From Terriglobia bacterium (GTDB taxonomy: Bacteria; Acidobacteriota; Terriglobia; Terriglobales; Acidobacteriaceae), in contig CAVSYI010000008.1 of the NCBI GenBank assembly GCA_963732045.1, forward strand, positions 63,317 through 127,316: DNA of 64,000 bases, in the 5' to 3' direction. The position numbers and the translations under genes are program-made. The notes below the pieces were generated by a model, which searched no databases, was not told where the DNA came from, and was given only the letters and a program-made list of their open reading frames with translations. Positions 7,569 through 50,819 of the stretch are shown piece by piece (the first letter of the stretch is position 1; each line of letters opens with the position of its first letter).

Positions 7569-7644
<76 letters not shown>

Positions 7645-9718: not shown

Positions 9719-10676
9719 TCAATACCCAAACTCCGTCGGTGCCGCGTAAGCGTGATGCTTCACCGCCAATTCTTCTACCCGGCATGCGCCCAACTGGTTC
9801 ATGTATCCGGCGCGGTCGGCGACCGCATAGACCCAGCGTTGCAACCATGCGTCGCTGTCTCGCAGAGTCTTCGTATTCTCATGATATTGCCGAAAGAAAG
9901 CGTTGTCGCGGCTGTAGTATCCCTGCACCGGCGAAGGATGCGCTCCATACCTGCACTCAACCACCGCATGAACCATAAATCCCGGAATGACGGTGCGATT
10001 GGGATCGCTGGCAATCACTTCAGCATCAACGATTTCTTCGGCCACCACGATGACTCGTTTCGCGGCGCGAACGCCTTCGATCATCACCCCGAAATTGCCC
10101 CAGCAGTGAGCGTTGCCATCACGGTCGGCACGCTGCAAATGAACAATCGCCACGTCCGGCGCAAGCGCCCGAACCGCATGCAGCTTCTGTCCACGTGGGG
10201 CCGTCGCCCAGGCGGGTCGTAGACCCGCCAGATTCCGCATCAAACGGTGACTCAATCTCCGCAAAGAATTCATTCTCACGCGCGACATCACTCCCGAGCG
10301 CAGTTCGAGTCGGCAGAAACGGCACACCCATCGCGGCCGCCTGCAGCGCCAACGCCACCGCAAAGTTCGTCAGGTTGACGATCTTCAAGCTACCCTGCTC
10401 CACCCCACGACGGAAGTTGTAAGCCGACCCCATCATCACATTGCCCACCCAAGCGGCAATGACACGCTCAACGCACCCCGCGGCAATCATCTGATCGAAG
10501 AGAATGTCTGAGATCGGACCAATTAGCGTAAGCCCATGTTTCTTCTGGCGGATAATCTCATGCCCCGCTGCAAACGGAATCATCTGCTCCATCTGCAGAC
10601 CAAGCGCCACCGAGGAGCCATCCGGCACCAACTCGGCAACCGCTTCGCGCATGGTCATGAGTTTTCCGGGAGCCAT
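9719..10676 (-). CDS. CoA-transferase subunit A (GctA/3-oxoacid CoA-transferase A family), frame-split
   Basis: ORF 10119..10676 (MAPGKLMTMREAVAELVPDGSSVALG...) continues in ORF 9719..10363 (...ALAPDVAIVHLQRADRDGNAHCWG...). 958 nt = 3n+1, junction about 10200-10240. Confidence 0.75.
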
Positions 10677-29339: not shown

Positions 29340-30977
29340 ACGGGCGAGGACGCCCAGTCCTCCATCAGCCGATTCGTCTATTTCTTCGCGTCGACTGATC
29401 CGTTCCAGTTCAATCACAGCAATCCATTGCCGGTTGCGGGTCTCGTTGTACACCACGTTTCCGCCCAGGATCTGAGCGGCCGCCGTGGGCGGCACGATCG
29501 TGGTGGTAGTCGAAGAACCGTTGCTTCCATTCCTGCCACAAGCTGCCAATGCTCGCAGCAAAGGATGTGCAGGCTCGTACTTGGTGGAGAACACGAGCGC
29601 GACTTCGAAAGTCGGAGCGCAGATCATTCGAACGGGCATCGGCCGCTGACATCAGTTGCTCCAGCGCGAAGTGTTCAATGCGCACCACGCGCATCGGCCG
29701 GGTGACATAGCCCAGGTACGGACGCGTCAGTTCGTCGCTGGCCGGCCAGGCGGTAAGCACCCGCGCCATGGGATAGCGCGCTTCCAGGAATTCTTCGGCC
29801 CGCTGGTGCAACGGATGTAGTCCGCGTAGGCCAGATTGTCTTCCGGAGCGAAACCGTAGGGCGGGTTGGTAAACCATCCCAGCCACGAACATCAGGGCGA
29901 TGATTGCGACCACGCCGCGCCACAGACGCACTCTGCGCCAGAGCGTGGACACGCAGACCAGAATTACCAGCGGCACCACCGGCAACATGTAGCGCGCCAG
30001 TTCCGCGCCGCCCACCATCGCCATGGCGAGCACGTACGCCACCATCACCGCGAGCATGGCGAACTGCGCGTCCAGGGCAATGCGCGGACGTTCACCATTC
30101 TGGTCGCGCAGCGGAGGCAGCCACATGGCGAACAACGCCGCCAGCGTCAGCATCAGAAGATGAAAATAGCCGCAGGGTCTGCCACAGACGAACCAGCAAG
30201 GCGAGCAGGATTCGAAGAGGCTGGATGCGTGGCCTGCGACGTTGTAGCGAAAAAACTCCGGATTGCCGAAAACAAATCCGGTCTTCCAGTAGTGGAAAAC
30301 GTACCAGGCGGTCAGCGGAATAAGTGGAACCAGAAGGAAGTCCGGTTGCGGGAATCTTCGCTCCGGCAGAGTCTTTCCTCCCAGCGACGCGCCAGCGCCG
30401 CGGCATGAAGATCCCAGGCGAACAAAGCCAGCGGCGCCAGGATCGCAGTCTCTTTGGTCAAGCTGGCGAGCGAGAACCAGAGCGCGGCGTCCCATCCTCT
30501 GCCCTTCATGTAGGCGTTCAGTCCCCAGAAGGTAAGTCCGGCAGCCGCCAGGTCGAGGTGGACGAGAGAGCTTTGCGCGAAGAACACAGGATAGAGCGCG
30601 GTCAGGACCGTGGTCGCGACCGCGACTTCGACGTTGGCCAACGTTTCCGCCAGCCGGAATAAGCCGAGCAGAGCAAACGATGATGCCAGCAGAAGCATCG
30701 CGGTTCGGGTCACGATGGGCGCGAAACCGGCCAGCTTCCACCACAGCGCCAGATAGGCCATCAGCAGCGGCGGGTGCGCGTTGGAAACGGTGGAGTGCGG
30801 AATCGGGCTGCCGGTCAGCAGCAGATCGCGCGCGGCCGGCACGTAGTAGCCGGCTTCGTCCCAGAAATACGGGCAGGCGCAGCAAGCGGCGCATGCAGGG
30901 CCATGAGCGCCACAAAGGCGATAGCAAAGACGAGTCCCGGGATGAACGCCTCGCGAAGGGTGGTCAAGGGTTGTCAA
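29340..30977 (-). CDS. ArnT/PMT-like (GT39/GT83-type) membrane glycosyltransferase, multiple frame changes; 3' end approximate
   Basis: ORF 30312..30977 (FWDEAGYYVPAARDLL...HPPLLMAYLALWWKLAG...), ORF 29410..30927 and ORF 29130..29639 read as one polytopic membrane protein. Confidence 0.5.
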
Positions 30978-31005
30978 TACAGTGGATGGATGCTGTGTCT
31001 GCCGG

Positions 31006-31302
31006 CTAGTGCACCGGGCCGGGAGCCATCATACGCGGATCCAGTTTGATCTCACCAAACGTGCTTTCGTACCCGGCTACATTCTGCTGCAGGATGGCCG
31101 ACAGCGCTTTGGCCTGCTGCGGACTCAGATAAATCCCCTGAAAATTATTGACTTCGACCTGGGACTCACTCTGCTGCTGAAGGGTCCCGAATACCAGAAA
31201 GAAATCCCAGACGTTCACCCGCACCTGCACGCTGTTGGCATAAGTCTCGCGATAGTCGGGAGTGTTGGTCAGTTTGATATTGGGCTGAATTGGGTTCGAC
31301 AT
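31006..31302 (-). CDS. DUF3467 domain protein
   Basis: Start MSNPIQPNIK (cat at 31300-31302) within ORF 31006..31563. YANSVQVRVNVWDFFLVFG...IYLSPQQAKALSAILQQNVAGYESTFGEI matches my recollection of DUF3467. Confidence 0.7.
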   Translation of the reverse strand: MSNPIQPNIKLTNTPDYRETYANSVQVRVNVWDFFLVFGTLQQQSESQVEVNNFQGIYLSPQQAKALSAILQQNVAGYESTFGEIKLDPRMMAPGPVH

Positions 31303-31673: not shown

Positions 31674-33267
31674 ATGACAATCAGCAGACGCGAGTTCATC
31701 GCCAGAATCGCGCGGTCTGGCGGCTATCGGCGCCGCCTTCATGACCATGCACTCGCTGGGGCTTCTGGGCATGGTCGAGACCGAGCAGCGGAAGGACTTC
31801 CCCCTGCCGCCCTCGACCGGTCGCGGAACGAAAGTGATTATTCTCGGCGCCGGAATTGCCGGGCTGGTCTCCGCCTACGAGATGCGGCGGGCCGGATTCG
31901 ACTGCACCGTGCTGGAAGCGCGCGAGCGTCCCGGCGGGCGCAACTGGACTCTGCGTGCCGGATCGAAGCTGGCTCTTCAACGATGGGACATCGCAGGCTT
32001 GTACGTTCGACGAGGGAAATTACTTCAACGCGGCCCGGCGCGTCTGCCCTCCATACACAAGACCATGCTGGGTTACTGCAACGAACTGGGAGTGGAACTT
32101 GAGGTCGAGGTAAATAGCTCGCGCAGCACGCTGCTGCAGAGTGACGACGTGTTTGACGGCAAACCCATTCGCCAGGCGCAGGCCATCAACGATACTCGCG
32201 GCCATGTCGCCGAATTGCTGGCCAAATGCGTGCAACAGGGCGCGCTCGATCAGGCCTTCACTCAGGACGACCACGCCGCGGTCATGGAATTTCTCAAGAC
32301 CTATGGCGCCCTGGGAAAGAACTATCAGTACACCGGCTCATCGCGCTCCGGCGACCAGCAATTGCCCGGCGCGGGCGACCAGATTGAAATCCCCCGCGCA
32401 CCTCTCTCTTTCTCGGACCTGCTCAAGTCGAAGTTCTGCCAGCCCATGCTTTTTGAAGAACTGCTCGACATGCAGGCCACCATGTTCCAACCGGTTGGCG
32501 GCATGGACCGGATTCCTTACGCCTTCGCGCGTTCTCTCGGCGATGTCGTCCGCTATAACTCGCCGGTCACCGAAATCAGAAAAACAACCGACGGCGTCAG
32601 GGTGTTGTACCGCAAAGGAGAATCCGGCCCGGTTGAGTCGGTCGAGGCGGCCTATTGCATTTGCGCGATGCCGCTGACCATTCTCAAGACCATACCCAAC
32701 GACTTCGCTCCGCGCGTGAAATCGGCGATCGAGCAGGTCGTCTATGACTCTGCCTACAAAATTGCGTGGGAATCGCGACGCTTCTGGGAGCAGGACGGCG
32801 ACGAGATTTACGGCGGCATCTCGTTTCTTACGACCGGCCCGATCAGTCTGGTCTGGTATCCCAGCGCGAAGCTGATGTCGAAACGCGGCGTACTCATCTC
32901 CGGCTACGCCGTGGAGAACTGGACTGAGTTCGGCAAGCTGCCGAGCCATGAGGCGAAGATTGCTGCTTCCAGAGCCGCGGTGGAAAAACTGCATCCCGGC
33001 AAGAGCAAGGAACTGGAGAAGCCGATTTATATGTCCTGGGGCAAGGTACCTTATAGCCTGGGATCCTGGGTCAGTCGCGGACCTGACTATCCTGCTTCGG
33101 CCGACGACCCTTACTTTCAGGGGCGCCTACAGAGAATTCATCGTTCCCGATGATCGGATCTATTTTGCCGGAGACCACTGCAGTCATATCATCGGCTGGC
33201 AGGAAGGCGCAGCCCTGGCAGCCCAGAGGGCGATCGCGATGATTGTCAGACCGGGTCAACAGCGTAG
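31674..33267 (+). CDS. TAT-exported flavin amine oxidase family protein, several frame changes
   Basis: MTISRREFIARIARSG (twin-Arg) in ORF 31674..32102. VIILGAGIAGLVSAYEMRRAGFDCTVLEARERPGGR in ORF 31741..33153. Short detour through ORF 31856..32113 (FNDGTSQACTFDEGNYFNA). C-terminus YREFIVPDDRIYFAGDHCSHIIGWQEGAALAAQRAI in ORF 32948... Stop placed at TAG 33265-33267, tentative. Confidence 0.75.
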
Positions 33268-33289
33268 GGGCGGACGCTCTCGTCCGCCC
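33268..33289. terminator. GC hairpin between convergent amine-oxidase and OMP genes
   Basis: gggcggacg-ctct-cgtccgccc, 9-bp perfect stem. Same ggcggac/gtccgcc motif as at 13797-13820. Confidence 0.5.
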
Positions 33290-33380
33290 TGGCGGAGCGA
33301 AGCTCCGCTAGCTTCCAGGCGAGCTGCGCCGCCCGCGACGCGAAGGGGCGTCCGGTCTACGCGATTGTTGCTGCTGCATT

Positions 33381-34751
33381 TCAGTGCGCCCGCAGGCGCA
33401 GGAACAAAATCGCACCGACCGGGTGCCCACCGTAGATCGGTTTCAGCGACATCCGGCACGCCGTACCAGGTAAATTGTCCACCCAGCCCAGTCGGACAGA
33501 TGCGGAATGTGGCCGACTTCCCTTTCATAGCCCGCTGTGTAAGCCTGCACTCGGGTGAAATATCGTTCGCTGAATCCGGGCGGTTCGGGATTGCCGCCGA
33601 GCAGAAGCTCATTGGTACGGTCCACATTTTCGATGCGAGTCCAGGCATAGTTGCGCTCGAGAAATCGCACCGTCGATTCCAGCAGATAGCTGTTGCCGAC
33701 GTTGCCTCCGGCAACATCCTGATTTCTGCCCCAGAGCAGCAACGACGCCCAGTTCCCTTTCGGCAAAGGACGGTTGTACTGCACCGACGCGGTCATGCGC
33801 CTGACGTCTTCAGCGGGCGCAAGCTACTCCGGGCTGTGCATCTGCGCAATGGAATATTGCAGACTCCAGTTCTGTCCGGGATTGGCGCGTGACCCGCGCC
33901 GACCACGAGTCTATCTTCCCGGAATTGATGTTCCAGCGGAACTCATCGGGCTCGCGTCCGTGAAATCCCGAGGCTTCCACGCGACGTTACGATGGGTGAT
34001 GCCCAGGGTGACGACATCGGCCGCAATGTGCGTGGAGTCCTGAAGATGATGTCCCAGCGGCGCGATGGGATCTTCCGACGCCGACGCCCGATGCGGATAC
34101 GCCGGCGGCCCCATCGCCGGATCTCCCATGGGCGCGGCGTATACCGACAACAACGTATGCTCCGCCAGACTTGTAGTCGTACAAAGCGGCGAGTTCCATG
34201 AAGAAATCATGAGGATGCTGGCCATCGACGATCGGACGTCCGAATGCCGTTTCTCCCTGCTGGAACAGCTCGGGATAGAACCGCTTCGAAACCGTGGCAG
34301 GTTCAAAGCTGAGCATGGTGCGAAGTGTCAGCGTACCCTTGCCAAATTTTCGTTGCGCCATCGGCATCCACCAGTTGGTGGAAAACAGCTTGTCGTAGCC
34401 GCGCGGACCACTCTGCTGCGTCTCGATTAGAAAACCTTCGCCGTGAAACATGAGCGTCCAACTACCCTTGGTGGTCATGAGCATTTCGGTGGGAGTGGAA
34501 TTGGGCTCTGCGTCAGTGCCTGACGTTGCGTGCTGCAACCTAGACTCAATGAGTGACTTCGGTTGCATGTTCATCTTTTCGGTTGAGGTGTTGTGGGTAT
34601 CCATACCAGGCATGCCGGGCATTTCTTGCGCAGAATGCGACGGTCCCGAAATGTCCATGGGTTCGTCGGAAGTCTGGCCCACAGCCCGAAAAACCGGCAG
34701 TATGAGACACAACAAGATTACGAGAGCAACAAGAAATAGTTTCCGCACCAA
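33381..34751 (-). CDS. Conserved-looking secreted/outer-membrane protein of unknown function with Met/His-rich N-terminal tract; at least 4 frame changes
   Basis: ORFs 33987..34751 (signal peptide, QEMPGMPGMDTHN, WTLMFHGEGFLIETQQSGPRGYDKLFSTNWWMPMAQ), 33911..34306 and 33443..33796. My translation of the last frames gives ...GGQFTWYGVPD / SLKPIYGGHPVGAILFLRLRAH*, stop 33381-33383. Confidence 0.45.
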
Positions 34752-34820
34752 TATCCCCTTGGCGTTAAAAACGAAATGCCGTTCAGGCCTTCCGGCCCGC
34801 AGGATGGAAATTGGTCAGGT

Positions 34821-35171
34821 TTAGACGCGGAGAGGAATCGTACGAGGGGGATCAGGCGACGAGACTGTTGCACTACCAGAATCGTTACGCGTAGAGATCA
34901 GCAACGCAGCTGGTTGACGTTGAACCGCGACCCCGACAACCAGAGGCGGTCGCGGAGTTGCAGCAATTTGTAGCAGAGCAGAATTATGCCCAACCTGGCA
35001 GCAGCGATAGGATGGCGTCGGCGCAGGAGACGTCGCACCCTGCTGGTGGCAACCGCCAGCAGGAACGGTCCCGGCGTGCATGGTCCCGGTTTCTTGCCAG
35101 GGCAACAAAACCGTCGCCAATCCCAGCACCAGAAGCACCGCGAGCACCCTGGAAGCGCGTTTCTCCATCAC
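34821..35171 (-). CDS. Small secreted Cys/His-containing protein (116 aa), unknown function
   Basis: Signal peptide MMEKRASRVLAVLLVLGLATVLL. GGCHQQG...YRCCQVGHNSALL. Immediately upstream (same strand) of the Met/His-rich OMP. Confidence 0.4.
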   Translation of the reverse strand: MMEKRASRVLAVLLVLGLATVLLPWQETGTMHAGTVPAGGCHQQGATSPAPTPSYRCCQVGHNSALLQIAATPRPPLVVGVAVQRQPAALLISTRNDSGSATVSSPDPPRTIPLRV

Positions 35172-35239
35172 TGCTCATTATATGCGCGAGCCATCACAGA
35201 CTTAAAAAGGAATGAATGGATCAGTTAAAATAAACGCAA

Positions 35240-35278
35240 GCCGGGATGGCGGAATTGGCAGACGCGTTGGACTTAGGA
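35240..35278 (+). repeat. Direct repeat / attL: copy of tRNA-Leu(UAG) nt 1-39 (acceptor 5' strand, D-arm, anticodon 5' stem and loop)
   Basis: gccgggatggcggaattggcagacgcgttggacttagga. Nt 1-25 are identical to 38520-38544 and nt 26-39 to 43618-43631. It diverges after the anticodon loop, with no pairing 3' stem. Confidence 0.85.
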
Positions 35279-35828
35279 ACCTCAAACAGAATTGCGAGGA
35301 ATTGCACGAAGTTGCAAGGGCTTCTGTTTATGCGGGTTTTAGCGATTCAGGCTGGCAACGGCTTGCACGGAATAGCACCAAATTACAAACCAAACTGACA
35401 CCAAAACTGAAACCAAAGTTCCACTTCTTGAACGGCATAATCTAAAAACGTAGCCACAGCGCTTCCTCCACTCTTTCAAGCTTGTTCCCTTTGACTAGAC
35501 CGGCGCGCCAACTCTCAAAGTATTCGCAGAGTGTCGTCATGTGGGAATCCTGAGAGCGAAACGATGTCTTGCAATAGCATTGCCTTCCCAGGCATCATCA
35601 CGGACAAAACTTTTTCGGATTGCTTGTCCACCACTTTCGCTCCAGGTGTTCGATTTTGACATTGCAGACCCGCGGTGACTACCACGTAACGACTTCGTGC
35701 AGGAAGTTGGTACGGAACGAACGGGAGGACAATCGCAAAGGCGATAGGAAAACAGCTTAGCTGGAGGAGGAAATGGTGAGAGCGACACGCACAAGAATGT
35801 ACATCCGATGAGGTATGCCCTCCGTTGA

Positions 35829-37097
35829 CTACCCGGTAGCACGCATAGAATTGCTTCCCGAGCCGAGAGGCACACGAGCGTGGATCGTGGTGCCACGCTT
35901 GGGTTGCGATTCGATTGAAAACGTTCCGTTCACCAATTTTAGCCGCTCCTCCATGCTGATCAGGCCCAAGCCTCGGCTCTCCCTTGCAACTTGGCTAACA
36001 AAGCCCGAGCCGGAGTCGCTAACCGTGAGATGAATCTCCTCCGAAGTTTCCCACAGTTGCGCTTGGAAGTGCCGTACCCCGCTGTGTTTTGCCGCATTGT
36101 GGAGGGCTTCTTGCAAAACTCGGAAGAGGCAAAGATCAACGTCCGGTGACAAAGGGCTAGGCAAATCGTGGGTTTGGAGGTCAATCTCCACTTTCTGCTT
36201 CTCGCCGAATTCTCGGCAGAAGCTTCTCATGGCTCCTGCAATACCCAGATATTCCAGTTTCGCCGAATGCAACTCGTGCGACAAGAATTGAATATCGGCC
36301 GCTATCTCGGAGGTCTGTTTTCGCAGTTCACCGATGCGGCTTGGGACTTCAGACAAATTGGGAGGGCTTTGTTGGAGTTGATCTAACTCGATGGTCAACA
36401 TTGCAAGACGTTGACCGATGTCGTCGTGGAGTTCTCTGGCAATCCGGGAACGTTCCTGCTCTTGTGCCTCCATCATCCTGCGGCTTACGTCTGCAAGGGC
36501 AGCTTCAGCCAGTTTACGCTCGGTGATGTCAACACTAATCCCGATGTAACCCTCAAACGAACGGTCCTGAGTAAACCTCGGTACTCCAATGCCTAGCATC
36601 CACCGATACTCTCCGTCGTGCCGCCGTAGCCGATACTCAATTGTGAATTTCTCTTGCCGATTAAAGGATTGCGAGTAGGTTTCGAGACTCCGCTGCAAAT
36701 CCTCCGGGTGGACACCTTCTGTCCAGCCTTTTCCAAGCTCCGCATCAAGTGATCGTCCGGTAAAATCCAGCCAAGTCTTGTTGAAGTAGGTGCGGAGTTT
36801 GTCCGTGCGCGCCATCCAGATCAACGCCGGAGCAGCGTTGGCGACCAATCGGAAGCGTTCTTCGCTCTCGCGCAGTTTATCTGTGGCTTGCTGCCGCCAA
36901 CGCTCGTAAAGGAGAACCACAAATCCGACACAAATGGCAGCTATAACGTCGTCCAAGAGCGCTAAGAAACCATGAACATTATGAACGTTCAGCCAGACTG
37001 TTAGCCCGCTCCCAAGAAGAAAGACGCAAACACTCGCGCCGATGCTCTTGAATGCTCCACTCCAGCCGTGACTCCACTTGCTGGACTCTTTTGTCAT
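35829..37097 (-). CDS. PAS-domain sensor histidine kinase (HisKA_3/NarX-DesK type), no cognate regulator adjacent
   Basis: 422 aa. Two N-terminal TMs, PAS (FRLVANAAPALIWMARTD...), H-box ARELHDDIGQRL, HATPase (HNAAKHSG...DSGSGF...GLGLISMEERL). Confidence 0.85.
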   Translation of the reverse strand: MTKESSKWSHGWSGAFKSIGASVCVFLLGSGLTVWLNVHNVHGFLALLDDVIAAICVGFVVLLYERWRQQATDKLRESEERFRLVANAAPALIWMARTDKLRTYFNKTWLDFTGRSLDAELGKGWTEGVHPEDLQRSLETYSQSFNRQEKFTIEYRLRRHDGEYRWMLGIGVPRFTQDRSFEGYIGISVDITERKLAEAALADVSRRMMEAQEQERSRIARELHDDIGQRLAMLTIELDQLQQSPPNLSEVPSRIGELRKQTSEIAADIQFLSHELHSAKLEYLGIAGAMRSFCREFGEKQKVEIDLQTHDLPSPLSPDVDLCLFRVLQEALHNAAKHSGVRHFQAQLWETSEEIHLTVSDSGSGFVSQVARESRGLGLISMEERLKLVNGTFSIESQPKRGTTIHARVPLGSGSNSMRATG

Positions 37098-37540
37098 ATA
37101 CAGCTCAAACTAGCTTTATCGCAATCGGGAGGAGCGCATCGGGCATCCTGAGGCAGTTGTCCCTCATGTCTGATTCACTCCTGCGCAATGAGTGAATCGC
37201 CCATGTACAGTTTACACCTCAAGCTGGTGGATGGCTTTAAGCTCGGCTCTTAAACTGGCAATTATTTCCTCTTTTTATTCTTCCTCGGTCAATAATCGAT
37301 GGCGACCTAGCAAAAGTGCTAGCTGACTAGGCACATGAGAGCAGGTATTCTGGGCCAGTTCAGAATCGCAACGCGGTCATGGGCAAGTGTTCGGGAAACC
37401 GACGTTCGGACCCTCACGACTGCATTGCCTTCATTCATGTATCGCTTAAAGCCGGACCATGCAGGTTCGGCTTTTTTGCTCTTAAGGAATTTCTCCAACC
37501 CCAATCAGGCGTCGCCCGGAATATAGCTTCGCCACCAGAA

Positions 37541-37995
37541 TCAGCGACCAAAATGTGCGCGTGAGCGACGCGAGTTTTTCAAAGGCTCCAGCCGGGCCAC
37601 CAATATGATTAGCAACCCGAAGGCTGTCAGAAACGCCATCATCAGTAATGTGGTGAGAATCGAATAAGCCGTCCATCGTTTCCATCGGCTATCGCCCGAA
37701 AATCGCCAGGCGAACAAGAGCAGGACCAGCAGCGAAGAATTGAAGGCGATCAAATTGCAAACCAAATGCAGCGGCTCGTGAATGAAGATCGCATCACCAG
37801 CCACACCGACCCCAGACAGAAATTGAAAGGTTGGAATCAGGACTGCGCCCCGCCCTGCGCCCAGCTCTCTGCCCAGCGCTAAGGCAAATGTCATCAACAT
37901 CAGCCCAAAGACAAGAAAAATTAATCCGTTGTGCCACCCTAAAGCAGTGAATTCAAGGGCGCTGATCGTCCCCCGCAGTGTGTCGTAGTTTGCAG
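37541..37995 (-). pseudogene. DUF998-like membrane protein, 5'-truncated
   Basis: Protein-like part of ORF 37541..38254 begins about ...YDTLRGTISALEFTALGWHNGLIFLVFGLMLMTFALAL, followed by 4 more TMs. The first roughly 40 aa expected for the family are replaced by integrase antisense sequence. Confidence 0.5.
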
Positions 37996-38463
37996 CCCTG
38001 GCCCCCAGATAGACCTTACGATTTGCCTTGATCCTGGCGATACCAAAAATGACGAAGGTCGCACGATCAAGATGACAACTGAAGTCTATGATCTTCTGAA
38101 GCAGTGCGTGGCTGGAAAAGCTGGAAGTGATTATGTGTTTACCAGAGACGGCAGGCCTATCTTGGATTTCCGTGGGGCATGGTGGGCGCTCTGCGTAAAG
38201 GCTGGCGTGGGGAAATTCGGAGCCAAAGACAAGCGCGGTAAACGTCCCTATCAAGGGCTCTCTTTCACGACCTCAGGCGTTCTGCTGTTCGCAATATGGT
38301 GGCGGCTGGAATTCCCGAAGTAGTTTGCATGAAGATCAGTGGCCACAAGAGCAGATCGGTATTTGATCGCTATAATGTCGTATCGACTTCTGACGTGGCA
38401 GAAGCAACGCAGAAGCTCGAAAATCGGAAATTGCAGGCTAAAATGGAACTGACACAAAACTAG
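37970..38463 (+). pseudogene. int: Tyrosine recombinase/integrase, C-terminal catalytic fragment only (plus one frame change)
   Basis: Own translation: ...PQIDLTICLDPGDTKNDEGRTIKMTTEVYDLLKQCVAGKAGSDYVFTRDGRPILDFRGAWWALCVKAG... Then in another frame [45 protein letters not shown]...*, with HxxR, GH and the catalytic Tyr. The N-terminal SAM-like domain and box I Arg are missing. Confidence 0.8.
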
Positions 38464-38519
38464 CACCAGCACTTCAGAGACAACATGGAAAGTCGCTGAA
38501 GACCGCATAAACACTACGT

Positions 38520-38544
38520 GCCGGGATGGCGGAATTGGCAGACG
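38520..38544 (+). tRNA. tRNA-Leu(UAG) nt 1-25 (5' piece of interrupted gene)
   Basis: gccgggatggcggaattggcagacg, identical to 35240-35264. Ends inside the 3' strand of the D-stem. Abuts 43618 to give a complete tRNA. Confidence 0.85.
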
Positions 38545-38833
38545 TACATCGGCCGGCGCGTCCGCCTCAAGTTCATCGATGACATCAGGAAGGCGAATGC
38601 CCAGAAGAGGAAGCGGCCGTCGACCGTCTCCTACAGCGATGCCATTCTCCTCCCGCCGGCTCCGACGGTGTCTATCGGACGCCTAACCATCACTGCCATG
38701 TATGCCAGGACGTTTTACGCGAAGAGGAAGGATGCAAAGCACTGTAGCGAACGGTGTCAAAAAAGAGCCGAACGGGTGATTGTCGGAGATAAGTTACGAA
38801 TAGGTTTGACGAAGAGGGAAAAAGGGCAAAGCC

Positions 38834-39407
38834 ATGAAGAAGCAAATCGAGCAATTGAAGAAACAGATCGCGGACCTGCAGGCGTTCTGCGCGGTCCTGA
38901 CGCCGGTCTTTGAGAAAGAGTATCGGCGCAGGAAGAAGGCGAAGGCTCTGTGACACCCGAAAGAGAAAAGAGCTCCAAGAGATTGTTGCGGAGCAGGTCG
39001 CCGAGAGATGGCCGCCGAGGCCGCCGTCGACAAGATCGCGGCCATGAAGCCCAGATCTTCGAAGCCGGAGGGGTGGGACTTCGAGGAGGAGCGCGCAGAG
39101 CACGCTCTTCAGCAGAGGCAGAGGGCTCGGGTGGCGAAGCGGCCGGTGCGCAGGAAGCCGGCGCCGGAGTGTCCTCCGAGGCTATTTCCCATGGGAAAGC
39201 CAGGGTACTTCGTCAACGATGAATTTGAAATCGTCGGTCCCCGCGGCCGCAGGCTCAGCACAGACGCTTCACCCCTACACCGGCCGGCCACGGGTCCAGG
39301 TTTATGTTGAGACAAATATGGAGGGTAAGCGGTTGAGGGCGTGGCTGGATCCGGAAGAGGAGTACAAGAAAGCCTATTTGCTGAAGTACGGTGTAGATCC
39401 TGCATGA
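38834..39407 (+). CDS. Hypothetical coiled-coil protein (frame changes likely)
   Basis: MKKQIEQLKKQIADLQAFCAVLTPVFEKEYRRRKKAKAL, then KELQEIVAEQVAER / AAEAAVDKIAAMKPRSSKPEGWDFEEER... / ...VQVYVETNMEGKRLRAWLDPEEEYKKAYLLKYGVDPA in shifting frames. Confidence 0.3.
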
Positions 39408-39655
39408 CGGTGTAGTTTTTGGCATGGCACTGTTTTTAGAATCGCGCAGTAGAATTAGAAATCAATTCTCTCTACTCCGGCTCAGAAAAATGCTACACCG
39501 GTGTAGAAGTTGCGAGTGGCCGACAGTGAAAACGCAGTTGCGACCGCAGCTGTAAAGTGTTGATTCTATTACTGCGGTTTTACTGCGGTTTTGACCTCAG
39601 CTGCGGACAGTTGGCCGATCAGTTGGCAGCCGCCAGCTCAGAAATCCCTTCCCGA

Positions 39656-39949
39656 ATGACCCCACGTAAGAAAACCCGCACCTACTATGGCAAGCCATGC
39701 GACCGCCACGGCGACGTTCTCCGGTACAGGAGTAGCCGCGGATGTGTCGAGTGCGCTTATGAAGCCAGCCAGCGGTATGCTGCCGACAACCCCGTCAAGA
39801 AGCGTCAGCAAGACCGGCGATGGAAGCGCATCAATAGAGAGCTGATCTCCAAGCGCCGGACGACTCCAGAGTATCGCGCGCAAGTCCGAGCCTATTACGC
39901 CCGCCGTGGTAATCGTTGCACCCCATCGACCACGCTCAAAGCCGCATAA
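39656..39949 (+). CDS. Small Zn-ribbon-like basic protein (phage-type)
   Basis: ATG 39656 within ORF 39557..39949: MTPRKKTRTYYGKPCDRHGDVLRYRSSRGCVECAYEASQRYAADNP... Confidence 0.4.
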   Translation: MTPRKKTRTYYGKPCDRHGDVLRYRSSRGCVECAYEASQRYAADNPVKKRQQDRRWKRINRELISKRRTTPEYRAQVRAYYARRGNRCTPSTTLKAA

Positions 39950-40179
39950 ATAAAGGGTCGCGCAGCCCGACGCCCGCACACAAAGTTCGGCCGCTCAGCC
40001 TAGGGAGCCTTGATTTCTTTCCAGAACGAAAGCCGGCCGGAGAGCCCCCTGCGCGGCGCCTACATGTAGTGGCGCGACCGCAGAACTACATTTTTGCCAG
40101 TTGAAATATTTATTCAAAGAAATCAAAGAAATCAAAAAGTCCTGCGTTTCCAAGGACTTCCGAAGGGAAATAATCAAAC

Positions 40180-40878
40180 ATGAAATCAAAGAAATCAAAG
40201 CGCGGCGGAGCCCGTTTGGGAGCCGGCCGGCCACCAAAACCCCAGGCTGGCGCGCCAGAACAAGTCCTATCCGCTCCGATTTCCATCCTCGATCGTGACG
40301 TAGCCACCCTCACCGACGACGAGCGCCGAGAGTATGACGCCGCGGCGATTGCCGAAGGCTGGCGCCCTTCGACGGCCGTCCTCCTAGCCTGCTTCCAGCA
40401 TGACCACTCAAAAAACGAACGGCTGACCTGGGAGGAATGGCGCTCCAACCTCCGGAACCCCTCCGTGGTGCCGACGGTTCAGCCAGAACCCCTCCGATGG
40501 AGTGTCCAAAGCCAGTGCTACGAGCCGATTTCAGCCCCTTCAATTTCCGACGTAGTCCAGCCTACCCCTTTCGTAGAATCGCCTCCTACAGAAATAGCCT
40601 CCTGCAAGTCCTTTCCCTGCAACACCGAAAAACAAGAAAATGACGACTTTTCGACGCAGCCATCACCGCAGCCGGTCCCATCCCCTTCACCTTCGCGCCT
40701 TGACCGCGCAATCGCAATCGAAGCCAGCCGGCCCCGCCCAAGCGCAGTCGAGCAGGCCATCTTCCAGGCCGACCAGCCCTCCACTCGCAGCCGCTCCTAC
40801 ACCTACTCCGAAGTCGAAGGCATGCGACCGACGTCCGGCAATCGATCGCACGATACCTACGAGCCGGCAACGGACTAA
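40180..40878 (+). CDS. Hypothetical protein with N-terminal GAGRPPK-type basic motif and Pro/Ser-rich C-terminal half
   Basis: 232 aa. MKSKKSKRGGARLGAGRPPKPQAG. This motif is common at N-termini of phage DNA-binding/small-terminase-like proteins, from recollection only. Confidence 0.45.
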   Translation: MKSKKSKRGGARLGAGRPPKPQAGAPEQVLSAPISILDRDVATLTDDERREYDAAAIAEGWRPSTAVLLACFQHDHSKNERLTWEEWRSNLRNPSVVPTVQPEPLRWSVQSQCYEPISAPSISDVVQPTPFVESPPTEIASCKSFPCNTEKQENDDFSTQPSPQPVPSPSPSRLDRAIAIEASRPRPSAVEQAIFQADQPSTRSRSYTYSEVEGMRPTSGNRSHDTYEPATD

Positions 40879-40881
40879 CCC

Positions 40882-41425
40882 ATGATCAGAAGAAGACGCC
40901 ACCTCCTCCCACCGCCTCCTCCCCCTCCCAAGCTCAAGATCCCCGAACCCTCGCCGGTCGTAATGATTCGCTTCGAAGATCAATGGCGAGTTGAACTCCC
41001 CAAGATCACACCAACGGCTGGCACGTCAGATTTTCCAGGCGCCGACCGTCGATGAACTCGTGAAAAAGCTTTGCCGAGCATTGCATCACGCTCAAGCAAC
41101 AATCGCGATTCTGTCCCAGCAGTTCCAGAGAACAAGAAAGGTAGATCATGTCCGACGCAACACAGCAGCATCATCTCGAAGTTTCACGCTGCACCCATGC
41201 GCAGGTGGAGACCATCGCCAACCAAGGGCACGCGGATTCGTAAACGCCGTCCTCCAGCTCTCCGAGAACGCCGGCAAGCAAGCCGGCGCCATCTGCGAGA
41301 ACAGCTCACTGTTGTCTCGAGCTGATCGAAGTCGACCGCACGCTAACCGCCTCGCTGAAGAAGCAAACCGTCTCGAGCCGGTCACTCTTCAAACGCATCT
41401 TCGGCAAACTCTAAACCCCTCGGAC
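40882..41425 (+). CDS. Hypothetical protein(s), frame changes
   Basis: MIRRRRHLLPPPPPPPKLKIPEPSPVVMIRFEDQWRVELPKI..., continuing in ORF 40991..41476 and ending ...SLFKRIFGKL* (taa 41423-41425). Confidence 0.25.
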
Positions 41426-41436
41426 TTCGAGCCGAA

Positions 41437-42142
41437 TTGCCTGGAGAGAAAAGAGCCACCTTGTTTTTCTTCTTAGAACACTCCAACATCCACCGTGCCC
41501 TCCAAGGCGATCGTCCAGCCGTCCTAAAAGCCAAGGACGTGGAATCATGGGAAAGCCTCGCTCAGGAGTACGGCATCACCATCGTGTCAGACTCAGCAGC
41601 CGGGAATCGTGAGAGCCGAACATCCTCCAATCAACCCCCGAAAAGCTGATGCGTTATCTCCAAGAGGCCGGCATTCAAGCCATTTCATCGAGATCGAAGA
41701 CGTTTTCTGCTTCTCCCCCAAGACCATTGAGGCCGGCGCCCTTGACGGTATGTTTCGCAGCACGCCGCGCAACGTCAAAGAAGCCCAGGCAAGAGACGCT
41801 CTGACCCAATCACTTCAGGGCATCGCGACAGATCGAATCATGGGACGAGATGAAGAATCTCTTGTGGTCGGTCATCCCCGCTGAAGGCCTCACCATCGGT
41901 GGCCCTGGAGCCGACATGTCCGACGAGACGTTGAGAAGACTGTCGTCGAGCAAATGCGAAAGGCCGGCATCAAGCTTCCAGACGATCCAGGCGACGGCTG
42001 GCGTACTCAAGGCACGGGACAGAATCTCGACGGCTGGCACGGTCTGACGCCGGAGCAAGAATACGAACAGTTCCACAAAGAGACACCCAAGGACCGCAGC
42101 AGCGCCGTCCCCGCTGGCTTCGGTGACGAAGATTACAGATGA
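41437..42142 (+). CDS. Hypothetical protein(s), frame changes
   Basis: ORFs 41437..41649, 41609..41884, 41850..42047 and 41954..42142 overlap head-to-tail in different frames, consistent with one or two genes broken by indels. Confidence 0.25.
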
Positions 42143-42316
42143 TCACCCGCCCTATCTCTGATCGACGCTTTGAACTGTCGGAGGCCGACATCCGCTCTCT
42201 CTCCCGCGGACTCCTCACGACCTCCGGCAAAACTTCAACCCCGCAGAAGTGAAACAGATCCTCCATGAATCACTCCGGCTCGCTGTCACCACAAATCCCA
42301 ACGAAGGAAGAATCCG

Positions 42317-42574
42317 ATGAACACTCTCCGCACCTACCTCCGCTCCTACCTCGGCATCGTTGATCCTTTGCCGGCAACCGAACCTGTCACCATCGCGCCT
42401 TGTGGCTGCAAAGAACAACTCACAGAAATTAAGAAGCACTTGGCAGCTCTCACCGGCGAATGCGTGCTACGTGTCCCAGGCTTTCTCGCGTTGACCGAAC
42501 ACCAGCGCGGCATTGCAATCGAAGCTCTGGCAAAAGCCCGTGGAGTTGAAATCCCCGCCGGCACCGTCCAGTAA
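42317..42574 (+). CDS. Hypothetical protein (85 aa)
   Basis: Intact ORF MNTLRTYLRSYLGIVDPLPATEPVTIAPCGCKEQLTEIKKHLAALTGE... Confidence 0.35.
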   Translation: MNTLRTYLRSYLGIVDPLPATEPVTIAPCGCKEQLTEIKKHLAALTGECVLRVPGFLALTEHQRGIAIEALAKARGVEIPAGTVQ

Positions 42575-42626
42575 CCTCCACCTCTTAACCCTCCGGTGCG
42601 CACCGGAAGAAGAATCTCCCTCCCAA

Positions 42627-43617
42627 ATGTTCAACGTAATTGAGAATCCCTCCCCTGATTCCGCCGACGACGTAGAGCCCCAAGCTCCGGCGCCGGCAAT
42701 TCCCACCTCCCCGATGTGATCAACTCCGTCGCCCAGGCTCCTGTCGCCCAGGCAACGCAAGCTCCTGTTCCAATGTGGAAGGGCATCCTGGCCGGCGCTC
42801 TCGCCGGTCTCGCTGGTGCCGCCGGCAGCAAGTCTTTCGGCGCCGGTCTCGCTGGTGGTGCTGGTGGTGAGCTTCGGCAACAACAGCAGAACATCGAAAA
42901 CGATCAAGCCGGCGAAGGCGCAGGCTTCCGCATCAAGTTTCAGGACGCGCAGTCTGCAAACCTCGTGGCCGAAGCGCACATCAAGGATATGCAGCTTCAT
43001 TCATTGCCACAGGAACTGCAAGATCAGGCGAACGAGCAGCATCAACCTCGACAAGCAGCTTCAGGATCTCGGCCTTCAGTCCCGTTATCGTCGCACCCAA
43101 CACCAGCGACGGAGCCGAGACGGCAATGAAGCAGTTGACTGACACTCATGGTGGAGTGCCGCAGTTGTTCGTTCACAACACCGGTGGTCAGTTGATCGGA
43201 TACGACCTGGGTCAGCTCTCCCAGTCGCCACAGATCGTCAACAAAGTGAATCAGTATCGTGTGATGACTGGGCAGGATCCTATCGACGCCCAGACTTTCC
43301 GCCAGATACCACCGCAGAACAAGAAGGACCTGATTTCCCAGGCTCTCAGCTTCGGCACCGAAGTCCCCACAAAAGCGAATGCGGTAGAGCTGGCGCAGAA
43401 GTACCAGAACTACGCGGACGCTTACCGGAAGAACCAGGATGCGATCTCACGGTTCAGGCGAAGCTCGACGACACCGCGAAGCATTACGCAGATATGTCAG
43501 CCGGCCTCGACAGACACGAAGTTAAACAGGCTGGAGCGGTTCAGGCTGCGAAAACGCAGGCTGAGGTGGCGAACAAGCCGAGCCGTGGTGATTCGGATCC
43601 TGTGGTTGCTGCGACTC
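42627..43617 (+). CDS. Hypothetical Gly-rich membrane/structural-like protein(s) running into the tRNA junction (frame changes; 3'-open at insert end)
   Basis: MFNVIENPSPDSADDVEP..., WKGILAGALAGLAGAAGSKSFGAGLAGGAGG, MKQLTDTHGGVPQLFVHNTGGQLIGYDLGQ..., ...AKTQAEVANKPSRGDSDPVVAAT. The reading frame is still open at 43617. Confidence 0.3.
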
Positions 43618-43678
43618 CGTTGGACTTAGGATCCAATGCCCAAAAGGCGTGCAGGTTCAAGTCCTGTTCCCGGCACCA
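43618..43678 (+). tRNA. tRNA-Leu(UAG) nt 26-86 (3' piece of interrupted gene)
   Basis: cgttggacttaggatccaatgcccaaaaggcgtgcaggttcaagtcctgttcccggcacca. Anticodon stem TTGGA/TCCAA, loop CTTAGGA, long variable arm, T-loop TTCAAGT, acceptor TCCCGGC pairing with GCCGGGA of 38520, discriminator A, CCA encoded. Confidence 0.85.
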
Positions 43679-43945
43679 CTTCATACGCTCTTCGGCCTCA
43701 CCGATCTGAGTTCCGCGGACCCTGACTCGCACCTTCGCAAGAATTCTCCCATAAGCGACTGAGCGCCGGTCAGAGCCCGCGATAGCCGACGCCCTCGGTA
43801 ACTTTTATAGATTGCTAACGCTCATTGGCAGTGGAATCTTCTTATGAAGCGCAGAAATCCTGAAGAGGTCAAATATCCACGAGGTTGTTCGATGTCCAGC
43901 GCCGCTAGCAAAAACTACCTTGTGTCTGATTCAGTTGATATTTCT

Positions 43946-44561
43946 TTAGGAGCTCTGCACCTTTTCGCACCTTCTGCCGCTCCACAACCCGCCAAAGCCG
44001 GAGGCTAATGCGTCACGCATCTGAAGACGGGCTCGTGAGAGTCTGGTCTTCACATTCGCTTCGGACAGCTTAAGGATCTGCGCGGTTTCCGTGATACTGA
44101 GGTGGTTTACATCGCGCAGTATCAATATCTCGCGGTATTTCTCGGGGAGAGACACCAGGGCCTTGGTCAGCGCATCACGAAGTTCGCGGCGCTCCAGAGC
44201 CTGCGAAGGGATTTCGCGCCAGTCCGCGAAATCCTTTGGGATGTAATCGCCGTCGTCGCTTTGCTGTCCCTGTTCGATCGATTCGTACAAGTAGCGACTG
44301 TCCTTGCGTAGCCGCATTTTCGCTTCGTTGATCGCGATTTGGATCAGCCACGTGCTGAACTTTGCCTCCTGACGAAAGCGTGCCAGAGCTTTGAAGGCTT
44401 TCAGGATGGCCTCTTGTGCCACCTCTTCAGCGTCCGCATCGTTTTTCACGATCGCCACGGCCGCAAGAAACACGGCACGCTCGTACGGCCGGACCAGTTG
44501 GTAGAAAGCTTCGGCATCAGCTTCGCCGACAAGCCATCAAACCTCCAATCTCTCTGGCCAT
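43946..44561 (-). CDS. ECF-type sigma-70 family RNA polymerase sigma factor, frame-split near 5' end
   Basis: ORF 43946..44473 (region 2: FLAAVAIVKNDADAEEVAQEAILKAF...FSTWLIQIAINEAK; region 4: ILRDVNHLSITETAQILKLSEANVKTRLSRAR). The upstream frame gives MAREIGGLMA from cat at 44559-44561. 616 nt = 3n+1. Confidence 0.8.
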
Positions 44562-49658: not shown

Positions 49659-50819
49659 ATGACACTCATGAAAGCGAGCTTGAAGACTGCCCTGCTTTTT
49701 TGTTTCTTAGCAACGCCGTCGAGTTCAGTCTACGCGCAGTCACCCAGTGACGACGTTCTTTCTCAACGAGCAGACGAAGCCATCAAAGCGCTAAGGAACC
49801 AAATGAAAATTCCCGGCACCAGCGTGGCTGTGGTGCGTGATGGAAGGATCATCAAGGCGACAGGGTACGGCCTCGCCAACGTAGAGCTGAACGTTCCGGT
49901 GACGCCAGCGACAATCTTTCAGGCGGGCTCAACCGGCAAACAATTCCTGGCGACGGCGATCCTCTTGCTGGCCGAAGAAGGCAAGCTCTCACTCGAGGAC
50001 AGCATCACGAAATATTTTCCCGAAGCGCCGGAGTGGTGGAAGCCGATCACCATTCGCCACTTGCTGACCCACACTTCAGGCCTGCCGGACATTTGGGGAG
50101 AGTCCGACAGCAGAGGAATGTTCGCGAATGCACTCGTCGACATGCGCCACGACTATACAGAAGATGAACTGCTCCGCACATTCATCAAGATGCGGCCCAG
50201 CTTTAAACCAGGAGAGAAATGGGAGTATTGCAACACTGGCTACCAGATTCTTGGCTTTTTGATTCGACGCCTGACCGGCAAGTCTCACAGCGATTTCATG
50301 CGCGAACGTGTCTTCCGGCCGCTCGCCATGGATACTGCAAGAGTCATCAGCGAATCCGACATCGTCCCCAACCGCAGCAGCGGCTACGTGATCGTCAACG
50401 GGCAACTAAAAAATCAAGAATGGATCGCGCCGTCGTTGAACACTACAGCGGACGGACCGTATTACATGACGGTCCTCGACCTTGCTAAGTGGGACGCCTC
50501 ACTCTACACGGAAACAATCCTGAAACGAACCAGCCTTGAGCAGATGTGGACCGCACAGGCAAAGTTAAACTCGGGAGAAACATACCCCTACGGTCTGGGG
50601 TGGTTTCTCGCCGACGTGAACGGCCATCGCTTGATGTACCACACCGGGGGAAATCAGGGCTTCTTCGTGAACATCTCTCGCTACGCAGACGATCGTTTAA
50701 CTATCATCGTGATGAACAATCTGGATGAGGACCACTGCGACACCCTGACAATTTCCGGAGCTATTGCTTCAATCTACATCCCGGCAACAAAAGGAAAAAA
50801 TCCGATTAAGGACTGGTAA
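49659..50819 (+). CDS. Serine hydrolase, class C beta-lactamase/PBP-like family
   Basis: 386 aa, signal peptide, SxxK motif FQAGSTGKQF, YxN-like YCNTGY. Confidence 0.8.
   Translation: MTLMKASLKTALLFCFLATPSSSVYAQSPSDDVLSQRADEAIKALRNQMKIPGTSVAVVRDGRIIKATGYGLANVELNVPVTPATIFQAGSTGKQFLATAILLLAEEGKLSLEDSITKYFPEAPEWWKPITIRHLLTHTSGLPDIWGESDSRGMFANALVDMRHDYTEDELLRTFIKMRPSFKPGEKWEYCNTGYQILGFLIRRLTGKSHSDFMRERVFRPLAMDTARVISESDIVPNRSSGYVIVNGQLKNQEWIAPSLNTTADGPYYMTVLDLAKWDASLYTETILKRTSLEQMWTAQAKLNSGETYPYGLGWFLADVNGHRLMYHTGGNQGFFVNISRYADDRLTIIVMNNLDEDHCDTLTISGAIASIYIPATKGKNPIKDW

Follow-up and report, generated by a model that had tools for sequence, protein, structure and literature searches.

A probable integrative element, now decayed, on the 5' side of a tRNA-Leu(UAG) gene in a Terriglobia bacterium, and the same layout in loci of related integrases

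A 64,000-nucleotide (nt) stretch of contig CAVSYI010000008.1 from a Terriglobia bacterium (positions 63,317 to 127,316 of the forward strand; here called the window) contains a segment of 3,241 bp, island I (35279-38519), upstream of a tRNA-Leu(UAG) gene that is itself interrupted by a later insert. Island I is, with high probability, a decayed integrative element that entered this tRNA gene by means of its own tyrosine integrase. The anticodon stem-loop would have served as its core, and its orientation would be the reverse of the textbook case. Direct observation covers the tRNA repeat and its geometry, the repeats in the arms, the decay, and many relatives with the same architecture.

The 25-mer GCCGGGATGGCGGAATTGGCAGACG has two exact occurrences in the window, at 35240 and 38520, and shuffled sequences gave an expectation of 0. 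The first occurrence (copy A) continues with CGTTGGACTTAGGA to 35278, and the same 14-mer was found again at 43618-43631. When 38520-38544 and 43618-43678 were joined, ARAGORN called an 86-nt tRNA-Leu(tag) with an encoded CCA. No tRNA was called by ARAGORN in copy A by itself, and in the unedited window ARAGORN and Rfam reported tRNA-Ala at 7569-7644 alone. Positions 35240-35278 correspond exactly to nt 1-39 of the rebuilt tRNA and lie 3,241 bp upstream of the rebuilt gene on the same strand, as a co-oriented 5'-end fragment upstream of the full gene. Beyond the repeat in copy A, nt 40 is a mismatch and nt 41-42 match. The 7-nt anticodon loop was read as nt 33-39 because the anticodon occupies nt 35-37 in the ARAGORN fold of the rebuilt tRNA; on that reading the repeat stops at the last loop base, the 3' edge. 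The identity block thus ends in a recognised sublocation, the anticodon loop, at nt 39 here and at nt 39-42 in relatives. A first-pass annotation of the window had placed the island on the 5' side of the tRNA and had described a 39-nt repeat equal to tRNA nt 1-39 that ends at the 3' edge of the anticodon loop, and both descriptions were borne out.

A displaced 3' fragment of the tRNA was not found in the window; the sole 12-nt match, at 49810, lies inside a beta-lactamase open reading frame (ORF). A classical 3'-side island was rejected, as the displaced fragment is the 5' part and no 3' fragment lies downstream in the window. We also considered whether another island lies on the 3' side, with a tRNA 3' fragment as its boundary. 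The only candidate boundary was the coding 12-mer at 49810, nothing was found at the boundary at 56.8 kb, and this possibility was rejected as well.

The integrase gene (int) at the right end of island I is represented by a remnant. With homologues as queries, tblastn traced it over 38006-38507; the alignment passes through three frames, shifting near 38263 and near 38455, and the Pfam match to PF00589 (Phage_integrase) covers model positions 61-169 of 172. About the last 170 of ~390 codons remain and ~220 N-terminal codons are gone. The catalytic Arg I and the arm-binding and core-binding domains are missing; the remnant retains FHDLRRS (H, R) and a later segment with the catalytic H and Y, and nothing N-terminal. 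Full-length relatives of ~390 residues begin with an N-terminal extension, followed by a SAM-like and then a catalytic domain, in which R207, H313, R316, H339 and Y348 are invariant. The window integrase appears to have been a member of this family once and to be a pseudogene now. Our first list of homologues contained proteins of at most 252 aa, probably a length limit from the 144-aa query. A longer query returned proteins of ~390 aa, and a family of short integrases was rejected.

The apparent stop codon of the remnant, TAG at 38461-38463, lies 56 nt before the tRNA and is due to a 1-nt deletion (GACACC to GACAC). The ancestral int frame ends with ...KSLKTA-TAA at 38508-38510, 9 nt before +1 of the tRNA. 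The same end is present in locus L002, whose integrase P0001 is 92% identical to the window remnant. The integrase remnant of the first-pass annotation is therefore real, and its gap of 56 nt is a frameshift artefact. Between the window and the L086 group, conservation reaches 91% over the 140 nt next to the tRNA, and identity is 78% over the whole int remnant. The high conservation of the last 140 nt fits a constraint on an attachment (att) arm.

The same layout was found in homologous loci. In the first five contigs fetched for homologues (L001-L005), int was followed 9-38 nt later by a co-directional tRNA-Leu(tag) in 5/5 cases. The ints of L001 and L002 are truncated and 73-92% identical to that of the window, and those of L003-L005 are full-length and ~60% identical. 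A genome scan with one genome per species, with an alignment of these integrases as query, gave 80 loci, nearly all from Acidobacteriota/Terriglobia metagenome-assembled genomes. The tRNA was directly downstream and co-directional (5'-type) in 37 of them and convergent (classical, 3'-type) in 26. The remaining 17 were neither, 16 having no nearby tRNA and one having the tRNA upstream of int. In a metagenome scan with P0001 as query, int and tRNA were co-directional in 38 loci and convergent in 8. The two scans combined contain 75 loci with the 5' layout and 34 with the classical convergent layout, proportions that are biased because the queries were drawn from 5'-type members. Targets in the scanned loci included tRNA-Leu (UAG, UAA, CAA), Asn, Met, Arg-UCU, His, Gln, Asp and Sec. 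An int beside the att site, 9 nt away in the window, is thus the layout common to homologous integrases (37 + 38 co-directional loci). The first-pass annotation had proposed to look at which side of the tRNA homologues of the integrase fragment lie on and at which tRNA segment is repeated. The predicted answer was obtained many times, with 75 co-directional loci and 5' repeats of 39-42 nt.

Several relatives retain both ends of an island. In L011, nt 1-40 of the tRNA (100%) are found 8.2 kb upstream of the full tRNA-Leu(tag). The left flank of L011 is similar to window 32423-34574 (84%) and its right flank to the window from 56855 on; the island contains OpgC, an insertion sequence and an int with a frameshift. 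L011 is therefore the same chromosomal site with a different island, in a related genome, which implies an independent integration. In L024, nt 1-42 of tRNA-His (100%) are located 7.7 kb upstream of the gene, and the locus also has an int whose ORF is open and a gene for an HTH_36 protein. The fragment in L129 is 39 nt long and precedes the tRNA by 1.65 kb. L141, L143, L145 and L149 share one locus, in which the fragment has decayed (three mismatches) and is followed by an island of 3.6 kb and then the tRNA. L075 contains the left flank of the window, then an intact tRNA-Leu(tag) at the position of copy A, then a classical convergent int. This arrangement is, as far as synteny goes, the state that a 5'-integration model predicts before integration. 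The first-pass annotation had regarded an intact tRNA at the 35240 position in a relative as a refutation; L075 has one, but integration into the 5' half itself predicts it, and the criterion was ill-posed.

Junctions of int, tRNA nt 1-39/41 and unrelated DNA were found in seven distinct forms (L092, L117/L119, L124, L134, L147, L150 and L153; the L117 sequence equals that of L119). They may be either attP sites or internal junctions of tandem arrays. One metagenome population, 94-99% identical, contained both states. In L086, L088 and L132 the int remnant is followed by an intact tRNA, and in L124, L153 and L134 the same remnant is followed by nt 1-39/41 and then by three differing sequences. 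The population is thus polymorphic in occupancy, and the break falls where the anticodon loop ends. The tRNAs of L086, L088 and L132, which follow the same int remnant, are identical to about nt 46 and differ in the variable arm and T-arm, a pattern that fits element-supplied 5' halves joined to host-specific 3' halves. Just upstream of the truncated int of L001, at about 9783-9830 (minus), the sequence looks like the 3' end of a tRNA with its CCA (reverse strand, …CGTTCGACTCCCACTCGCTTCCGCCA); ARAGORN calls no tRNA there. Identity blocks of 5'-type loci end at nt 39-42; among 3'-type loci the start is mostly at nt 30-33, the two exceptions being nt 23 and nt 37. These limits mirror each other about loop nt 33-39 and are consistent with the anticodon loop as the overlap region.

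The position of these limits bears on another origin of the repeat. Islands carrying tRNA genes exist, and the identity block spans the whole 5' part from +1. The element could thus have carried a complete tRNA-Leu gene beside int, so that both ends were first full tRNA genes and the left one lost its 3' half by a later deletion. We regard this as very improbable. More than 12 independent junctions end at nt 39-42 (window, L011, L024, L129, L092, L117, L124, L134, L147, L150, L153 and the L143 group), and independent deletions would not have one common endpoint. Moreover, ACCT and not TCCA follows nt 39 in the attL of the window and in L124 and L153, two of the three junction sequences of the polymorphic population.

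An island of the classical 3'-side kind could also have been turned round by inversion, deletion or another rearrangement at the locus, and the locus is indeed prone to rearrangement. Synteny of the right flank with relatives resumes only at about 56.8 kb, and a ~13-kb block from 43679 to about 56800, which starts at the tRNA 3' end, is absent from the syntenic loci L011, L025 and L001. In L004 (16012-17899) a PMT_2/DUF3467 block is inverted and follows the tRNA on its downstream side, and in the window (29675-31287) and in L001 (180-2100) it is found upstream; its placement suggests an inversion around the tRNA locus in some lineage. Rearrangement as the source of the layout is even less probable than a carried tRNA gene. 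The same int-to-tRNA layout occurs in 75 loci from different genomes and with different tRNA species, the same direct arm-type repeats are found on both arms, and at the syntenic site L011 is contiguous from the left flank through nt 1-40, the island and the tRNA to the right flank. The 5' layout is systematic in this integrase family and is not a local rearrangement.

Tandem pairs of the arm motif are present in the 64-kb window at 35393-35414 and 38447-38467 only. The left-arm pair is AACTGACACC aa AACTGAAACC, and the right-arm pair is inside the int 3' end (Table 1). In L011 an identical 23-mer, CAAGTGCCACCACAACTGCCACC, was found on both arms. At a distance of 50-130 nt before the tRNA, 9-mers repeated in tandem at a spacing of 11-12 nt were found in 29/40 5'-type loci, in 24/26 3'-type loci and in 10/198 control windows, and the arm-repeat sequence varies with the integrase subclade. 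Tandem repeats together with an N-terminal extension form the pattern of a heterobivalent integrase with predicted arm-type sites. Lambda-type heterobivalent integrases have the same short tandem repeat on both arms, 50-135 nt from the core, and an N-terminal extension before the SAM-like and catalytic domains. In contrast to the lambda type, binding of the repeats by the N-terminal domain is putative here, and no excisionase gene was identified in island I. Three tandem 10-mers, GAATTGCGAG, GAATTGCACG and AAGTTGCAAG, lie at 35289-35318, starting 11 nt inside the left end of the island, and may be candidate sites of an accessory factor. A similar sequence, AAATTGCAGG, was observed in the right arm near 38429.

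The DNA that precedes attR bears no relation to the native upstream region of the tRNA, which is kept at attL and in L075. The element would therefore supply whatever drives the rebuilt tRNA. In L011, ahead of the attL fragment, and in L075, ahead of the intact tRNA, the TAAAAT of the native promoter-like site and its neighbouring bases are conserved. Boxes similar to a -10 element (at least 5/6) were detected within 40 nt in 35% of 5'-type loci, in 31% of native upstream regions (3'-type loci) and in 4% of int-internal controls. In L003, L004, L022 and L024 the boxes are clear, of the form TGnTATAAT or TATAAT, and their ends lie 10-19 nt before +1. Read-through from int with processing by RNase P is an equally good guess as a promoter of the element. 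The earlier suggestion that the element must supply the tRNA 5' half and its promoter stood for the 5' half and the upstream DNA of the working tRNA copy; as to a promoter, the subclade of the window showed none that convinces. The two ATAAAC boxes noted in the first-pass annotation are located where it had put them (35230-35235 and 38507-38512) and are not a shared promoter element. The right one overlaps the int stop codon, the left one is the tail of the native -10-like TAAAAT, and the two are unrelated.

From these observations a course of events can be proposed. Where exactly the strands crossed over, what drove transcription and which decay event came first are inferred in it. The attP of the element would have been at the int 3' end, with two arm-type repeats within the last int codons, then the int stop codon and a 9-nt spacer. 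It would have continued with tRNA nt 1-39, a degenerate 3' stem (ACCTC) and, ~110 nt on, a second pair of the same arm-type repeats. Strand exchange in the 7-nt anticodon loop would have left the host promoter and host nt 1-39 at attL (35202-35278) and joined element nt 1-39 to host nt 40-86 at attR. The rebuilt tRNA would then rely on element DNA to be transcribed; a promoter within or close to the 3' end of int is one possibility, read-through and RNase P cleavage the other. Afterwards int would have lost its N-terminal ~220 codons and gained two frameshifts, leaving the island immobile. Later still, 5 kb of orphan DNA would have entered the D-stem of the rebuilt tRNA.

Several points weigh against this interpretation. 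The window copy is a fossil, and neither Arg I nor either of the DNA-binding domains is left in its integrase. Within 40 nt of the tRNA, no sigma-70-type promoter that convinces was found in the subclade of the window. For most full-length relatives attL was absent within the 10 kb fetched. No terminal overlap indicative of a circular or free attP was found in the contigs with junctions of int and nt 1-39, and these junctions could be internal to tandem arrays.

The geometry itself is not new, as the first-pass annotation had implied it to be. Excerpts of PMC6563490 describe recombination with the 5'-distal part of tRNA genes as documented but rare, citing Zhao & Williams 2002 and four archaeal studies. 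According to the excerpted text of PMC8371274, rebuilt bacterial tRNA genes owe their expression to the original promoter "with very few exceptions", and pTN3-like integrases use the tRNA 5' half, which is "seldomly encountered in bacteria". The same excerpts say that in the pTN3 type the tRNA is expressed from the integrase promoter, and the identity block of pTN3 is given as 41 bp of tRNA-Leu in the part of PMC5495485 that describes it. Island I is a decayed further case of a known, rare geometry.

As described in the citing passages of PMC6563490 and PMC8371274, the element of Zhao & Williams 2002 is bacterial, uses the 5'-distal part of a tRNA and leaves the rebuilt gene cut off from its own promoter, as here. 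It differs, as far as those passages allow a comparison, in that the 5' layout is the commoner one among loci fetched with our clade queries. pTN3 and TKV4 (SSV family, "suicidal", Thermococcales) also use the 5' half of tRNA-Leu. In contrast to island I, whose int ends 9 nt before the tRNA segment, their attP is inside the int ORF and int is split on integration; the present case is moreover bacterial, and its integrase has putative arm-type sites. An SSV-type split int was rejected. The ancestral frame stops at 38508-38510, before the tRNA segment, and full-length relatives are unsplit beside the tRNA. No N-terminal piece of int was found at the other end of the island, and no similarity to it elsewhere in the searched stretch 34001-44000.

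In the tRNA-dependent lysogeny of mycobacteriophages, the host tRNA is reportedly not rebuilt and the phage brings a replacement tRNA. That system was rejected as a model, as the gene was rebuilt by island I and neither island I nor the 5-kb insert has a tRNA. It is like the present case in that integration at a tRNA gene has an unusual outcome for the tRNA, as the part of PMC10865867 consulted describes; here, in contrast, island I rebuilt the tRNA, and the later insert destroys the gene but carries no tRNA. A further likeness is to classical anticodon-loop islands (the sublocation classes of Williams 2002, as summarised in excerpts of PMC8371274). These share a tyrosine integrase, an anticodon stem-loop core, a 7-nt overlap, a gene restored by element DNA and an int beside the att site. 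Unlike these, the element here carries the 5' part of the tRNA, the island is upstream and the native promoter is displaced.

Members of the same integrase family use tRNAs in the classical 3'-side orientation as well (L026, L062 and L081). Several 3'-type integrases are nearer to 5'-type ones than to any other 3'-type. L012 (3'-type) and L009 (5'-type) are 61% identical over 356 residues, and the nearest 3'-type neighbour is 47% identical. L058 and L061 (tRNA-Arg-UCU, 3'-type) are 64% identical to L083 (tRNA-Arg-UCU, 5'-type), and these groups have TTNGGGCA-type arm repeats and the CCTAACTA motif in common. L022, L051 and L083 on the one side and L058 and L061 on the other have homologous int-proximal arms and use tRNA-Arg(UCU) in opposite orientations. 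L066 (3'-type, tRNA-Leu-UAA) has GTGAATGGGTTGGG in common with the 5'-type group, right up to the tRNA boundary. The tree was constructed by the neighbor-joining method and has no support values, and the number of flips can be given only roughly, as "several".

The integrases of L024 and L022 are 89% identical and have near-identical arms, and their targets are tRNA-His and tRNA-Arg(UCU). The 5' halves of the two tRNAs have TAGAGCATCGGA in common, which hints at a core recognition element. Some tRNAs are used from both sides. L002 (1016-2454), L003 (1482-1535), L038, L079 and L084 carry classical 3'-side islands or 3' fragments; in L002 there is a second int with an HTH_17 excisionase, convergent, and in L003 nt 32-85 are repeated 88 nt downstream.

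Taken together, these comparisons lead us to a wider proposal, which we hold only tentatively and consider somewhat nearer to doubtful than to probable. The integrases would form a large, apparently uncharacterised, Terriglobia-centred clade in which integration into the 5' half is the norm over the tRNAs listed. The core orientation would have flipped several times, once between 64%-identical tRNA-Arg(UCU) integrases with homologous int-proximal arms. Reliance of the host tRNA on element DNA would make the int 3' end hard to lose and could explain N-truncated int remnants before tRNAs. Truncated ints were found in about 7/37 5'-type and 2/26 3'-type loci, an excess too small to support this "promoter hostage" idea. 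No description of the Acidobacteriota clade was found in the literature searched, and such an absence is weak evidence.

The later insert has exact junctions, with no base duplicated or lost, and inactivates the only tRNA-Leu(UAG) copy in the window. The observed order is nt 1-39, island, nt 1-25, insert, nt 26-86; the reverse order of events would give nt 1-25, insert, nt 26-39, island, nt 1-86. The insert is later than island I because the observed layout is impossible in the reverse order, and on this point the first-pass annotation was correct. The insert has no terminal inverted or direct repeats and no target duplication, and neither an integrase (by tblastn) nor a tRNA was found in it. 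Its tested ORFs gave no Pfam match and only weak PHROGs matches, to small zinc-ribbon-like proteins, and no relatives were found in viral contigs. The right-end ORF had no homologue but itself among 5.8 billion proteins, and a 232-aa ORF had two distant relatives only among 1.84 billion representatives. Iteron-like AAATCAAAG repeats are located at 40104-40200. A group II intron was rejected, as no Rfam family was found. A likeness of the last 25 nt of the insert to tRNA nt 1-25 was considered on visual inspection and set aside as weak.

Reading frames are open across both junctions of the insert. It is more likely that the insert is real than that it is a misassembly, because nothing at the junctions could mislead an assembler. 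The insert is unique to the window contig, which is metagenome-derived, and the whole arrangement could on this account be taken for an assembly artefact. We consider this the least probable of the alternatives. The architecture of island I recurs in independent assemblies, and the only junction repeat able to mislead an assembler is the 25-39-nt tRNA fragment itself.

Table 1. Features of island I and its surroundings in the window.
Feature	Position	Strand	Basis
Native tRNA promoter-like site TTAAAA-18-TAAAAT, left at attL	35202..35231	+	Consensus scan; function putative
attL core, apparent displaced host copy of tRNA-Leu(UAG) nt 1-39 without 3' half	35240..35278	+	Exact match; synteny with L011 and L075
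Island-side arm of attL	35279..35420	+	Sequence reading; three tandem 10-mers and arm-type repeat pair
Cargo sensor histidine kinase, PAS / HisKA_3 / HATPase_c	35829..37097	-	Pfam
Unannotated ORF, 237 aa as listed, overlapping the break where the integrase N-terminus is missing	37541..38254	-	ORF list
Tyrosine integrase pseudogene	38006..38510	+	tblastn with P0001, P0008 and P0128; Pfam; frames; alignment to full-length relatives
attR arm-type repeat pair AACTGACAC[C] a AACTAGCACC, inside int 3' end	38447..38467	+	Motif scan of window
attR, presumed element-supplied tRNA-Leu(UAG) nt 1-25 of reconstituted gene	38520..38544	+	25-mer repeat; ARAGORN on joined gene
Orphan insert of 5,073 bp in D-stem, between tRNA nt 25 and 26	38545..43617	+	Exact junctions
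tRNA-Leu(UAG) nt 26-86, probably host-derived from about nt 40 on	43618..43678	+	ARAGORN; junction reading; synteny

Relatives of the histidine kinase were found among the fetched loci in L039 and L040 only, in unrelated contexts, and the unannotated ORF had no match in Pfam or PHROGs. The 13-kb block downstream of the tRNA contains genes of ordinary appearance, for an ECF sigma factor, a TPR protein, a CLC channel, GGT, a beta-lactamase, DinB, hydrolases, TonB, STAS and DUF1529 proteins. No integrase was found in this block, and no tRNA fragment at its far end.

The odd tRNA fragment and the integrase stub of the window are explained by this interpretation as an ordinary fossil of site-specific integration. 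Island finders and annotators that expect 3' fragments downstream of the tRNA could miss such islands or set their bounds wrongly. In the Acidobacteriota loci fetched with the clade queries, the 5' layout was at least as frequent as the 3' layout, and a kind of integration documented as rare in bacteria seems to be routine in a family of Acidobacteriota integrases. The size of the clade and the repeated flips of orientation are a more interesting by-product than the island in the window itself. Natural pairs of integrases, close in sequence and acting on one tRNA species in opposite orientations, would be a useful system for studying what determines direction at a nearly symmetric stem-loop att core, and with this family one could examine how a tRNA gene separated from its own promoter comes to be expressed.

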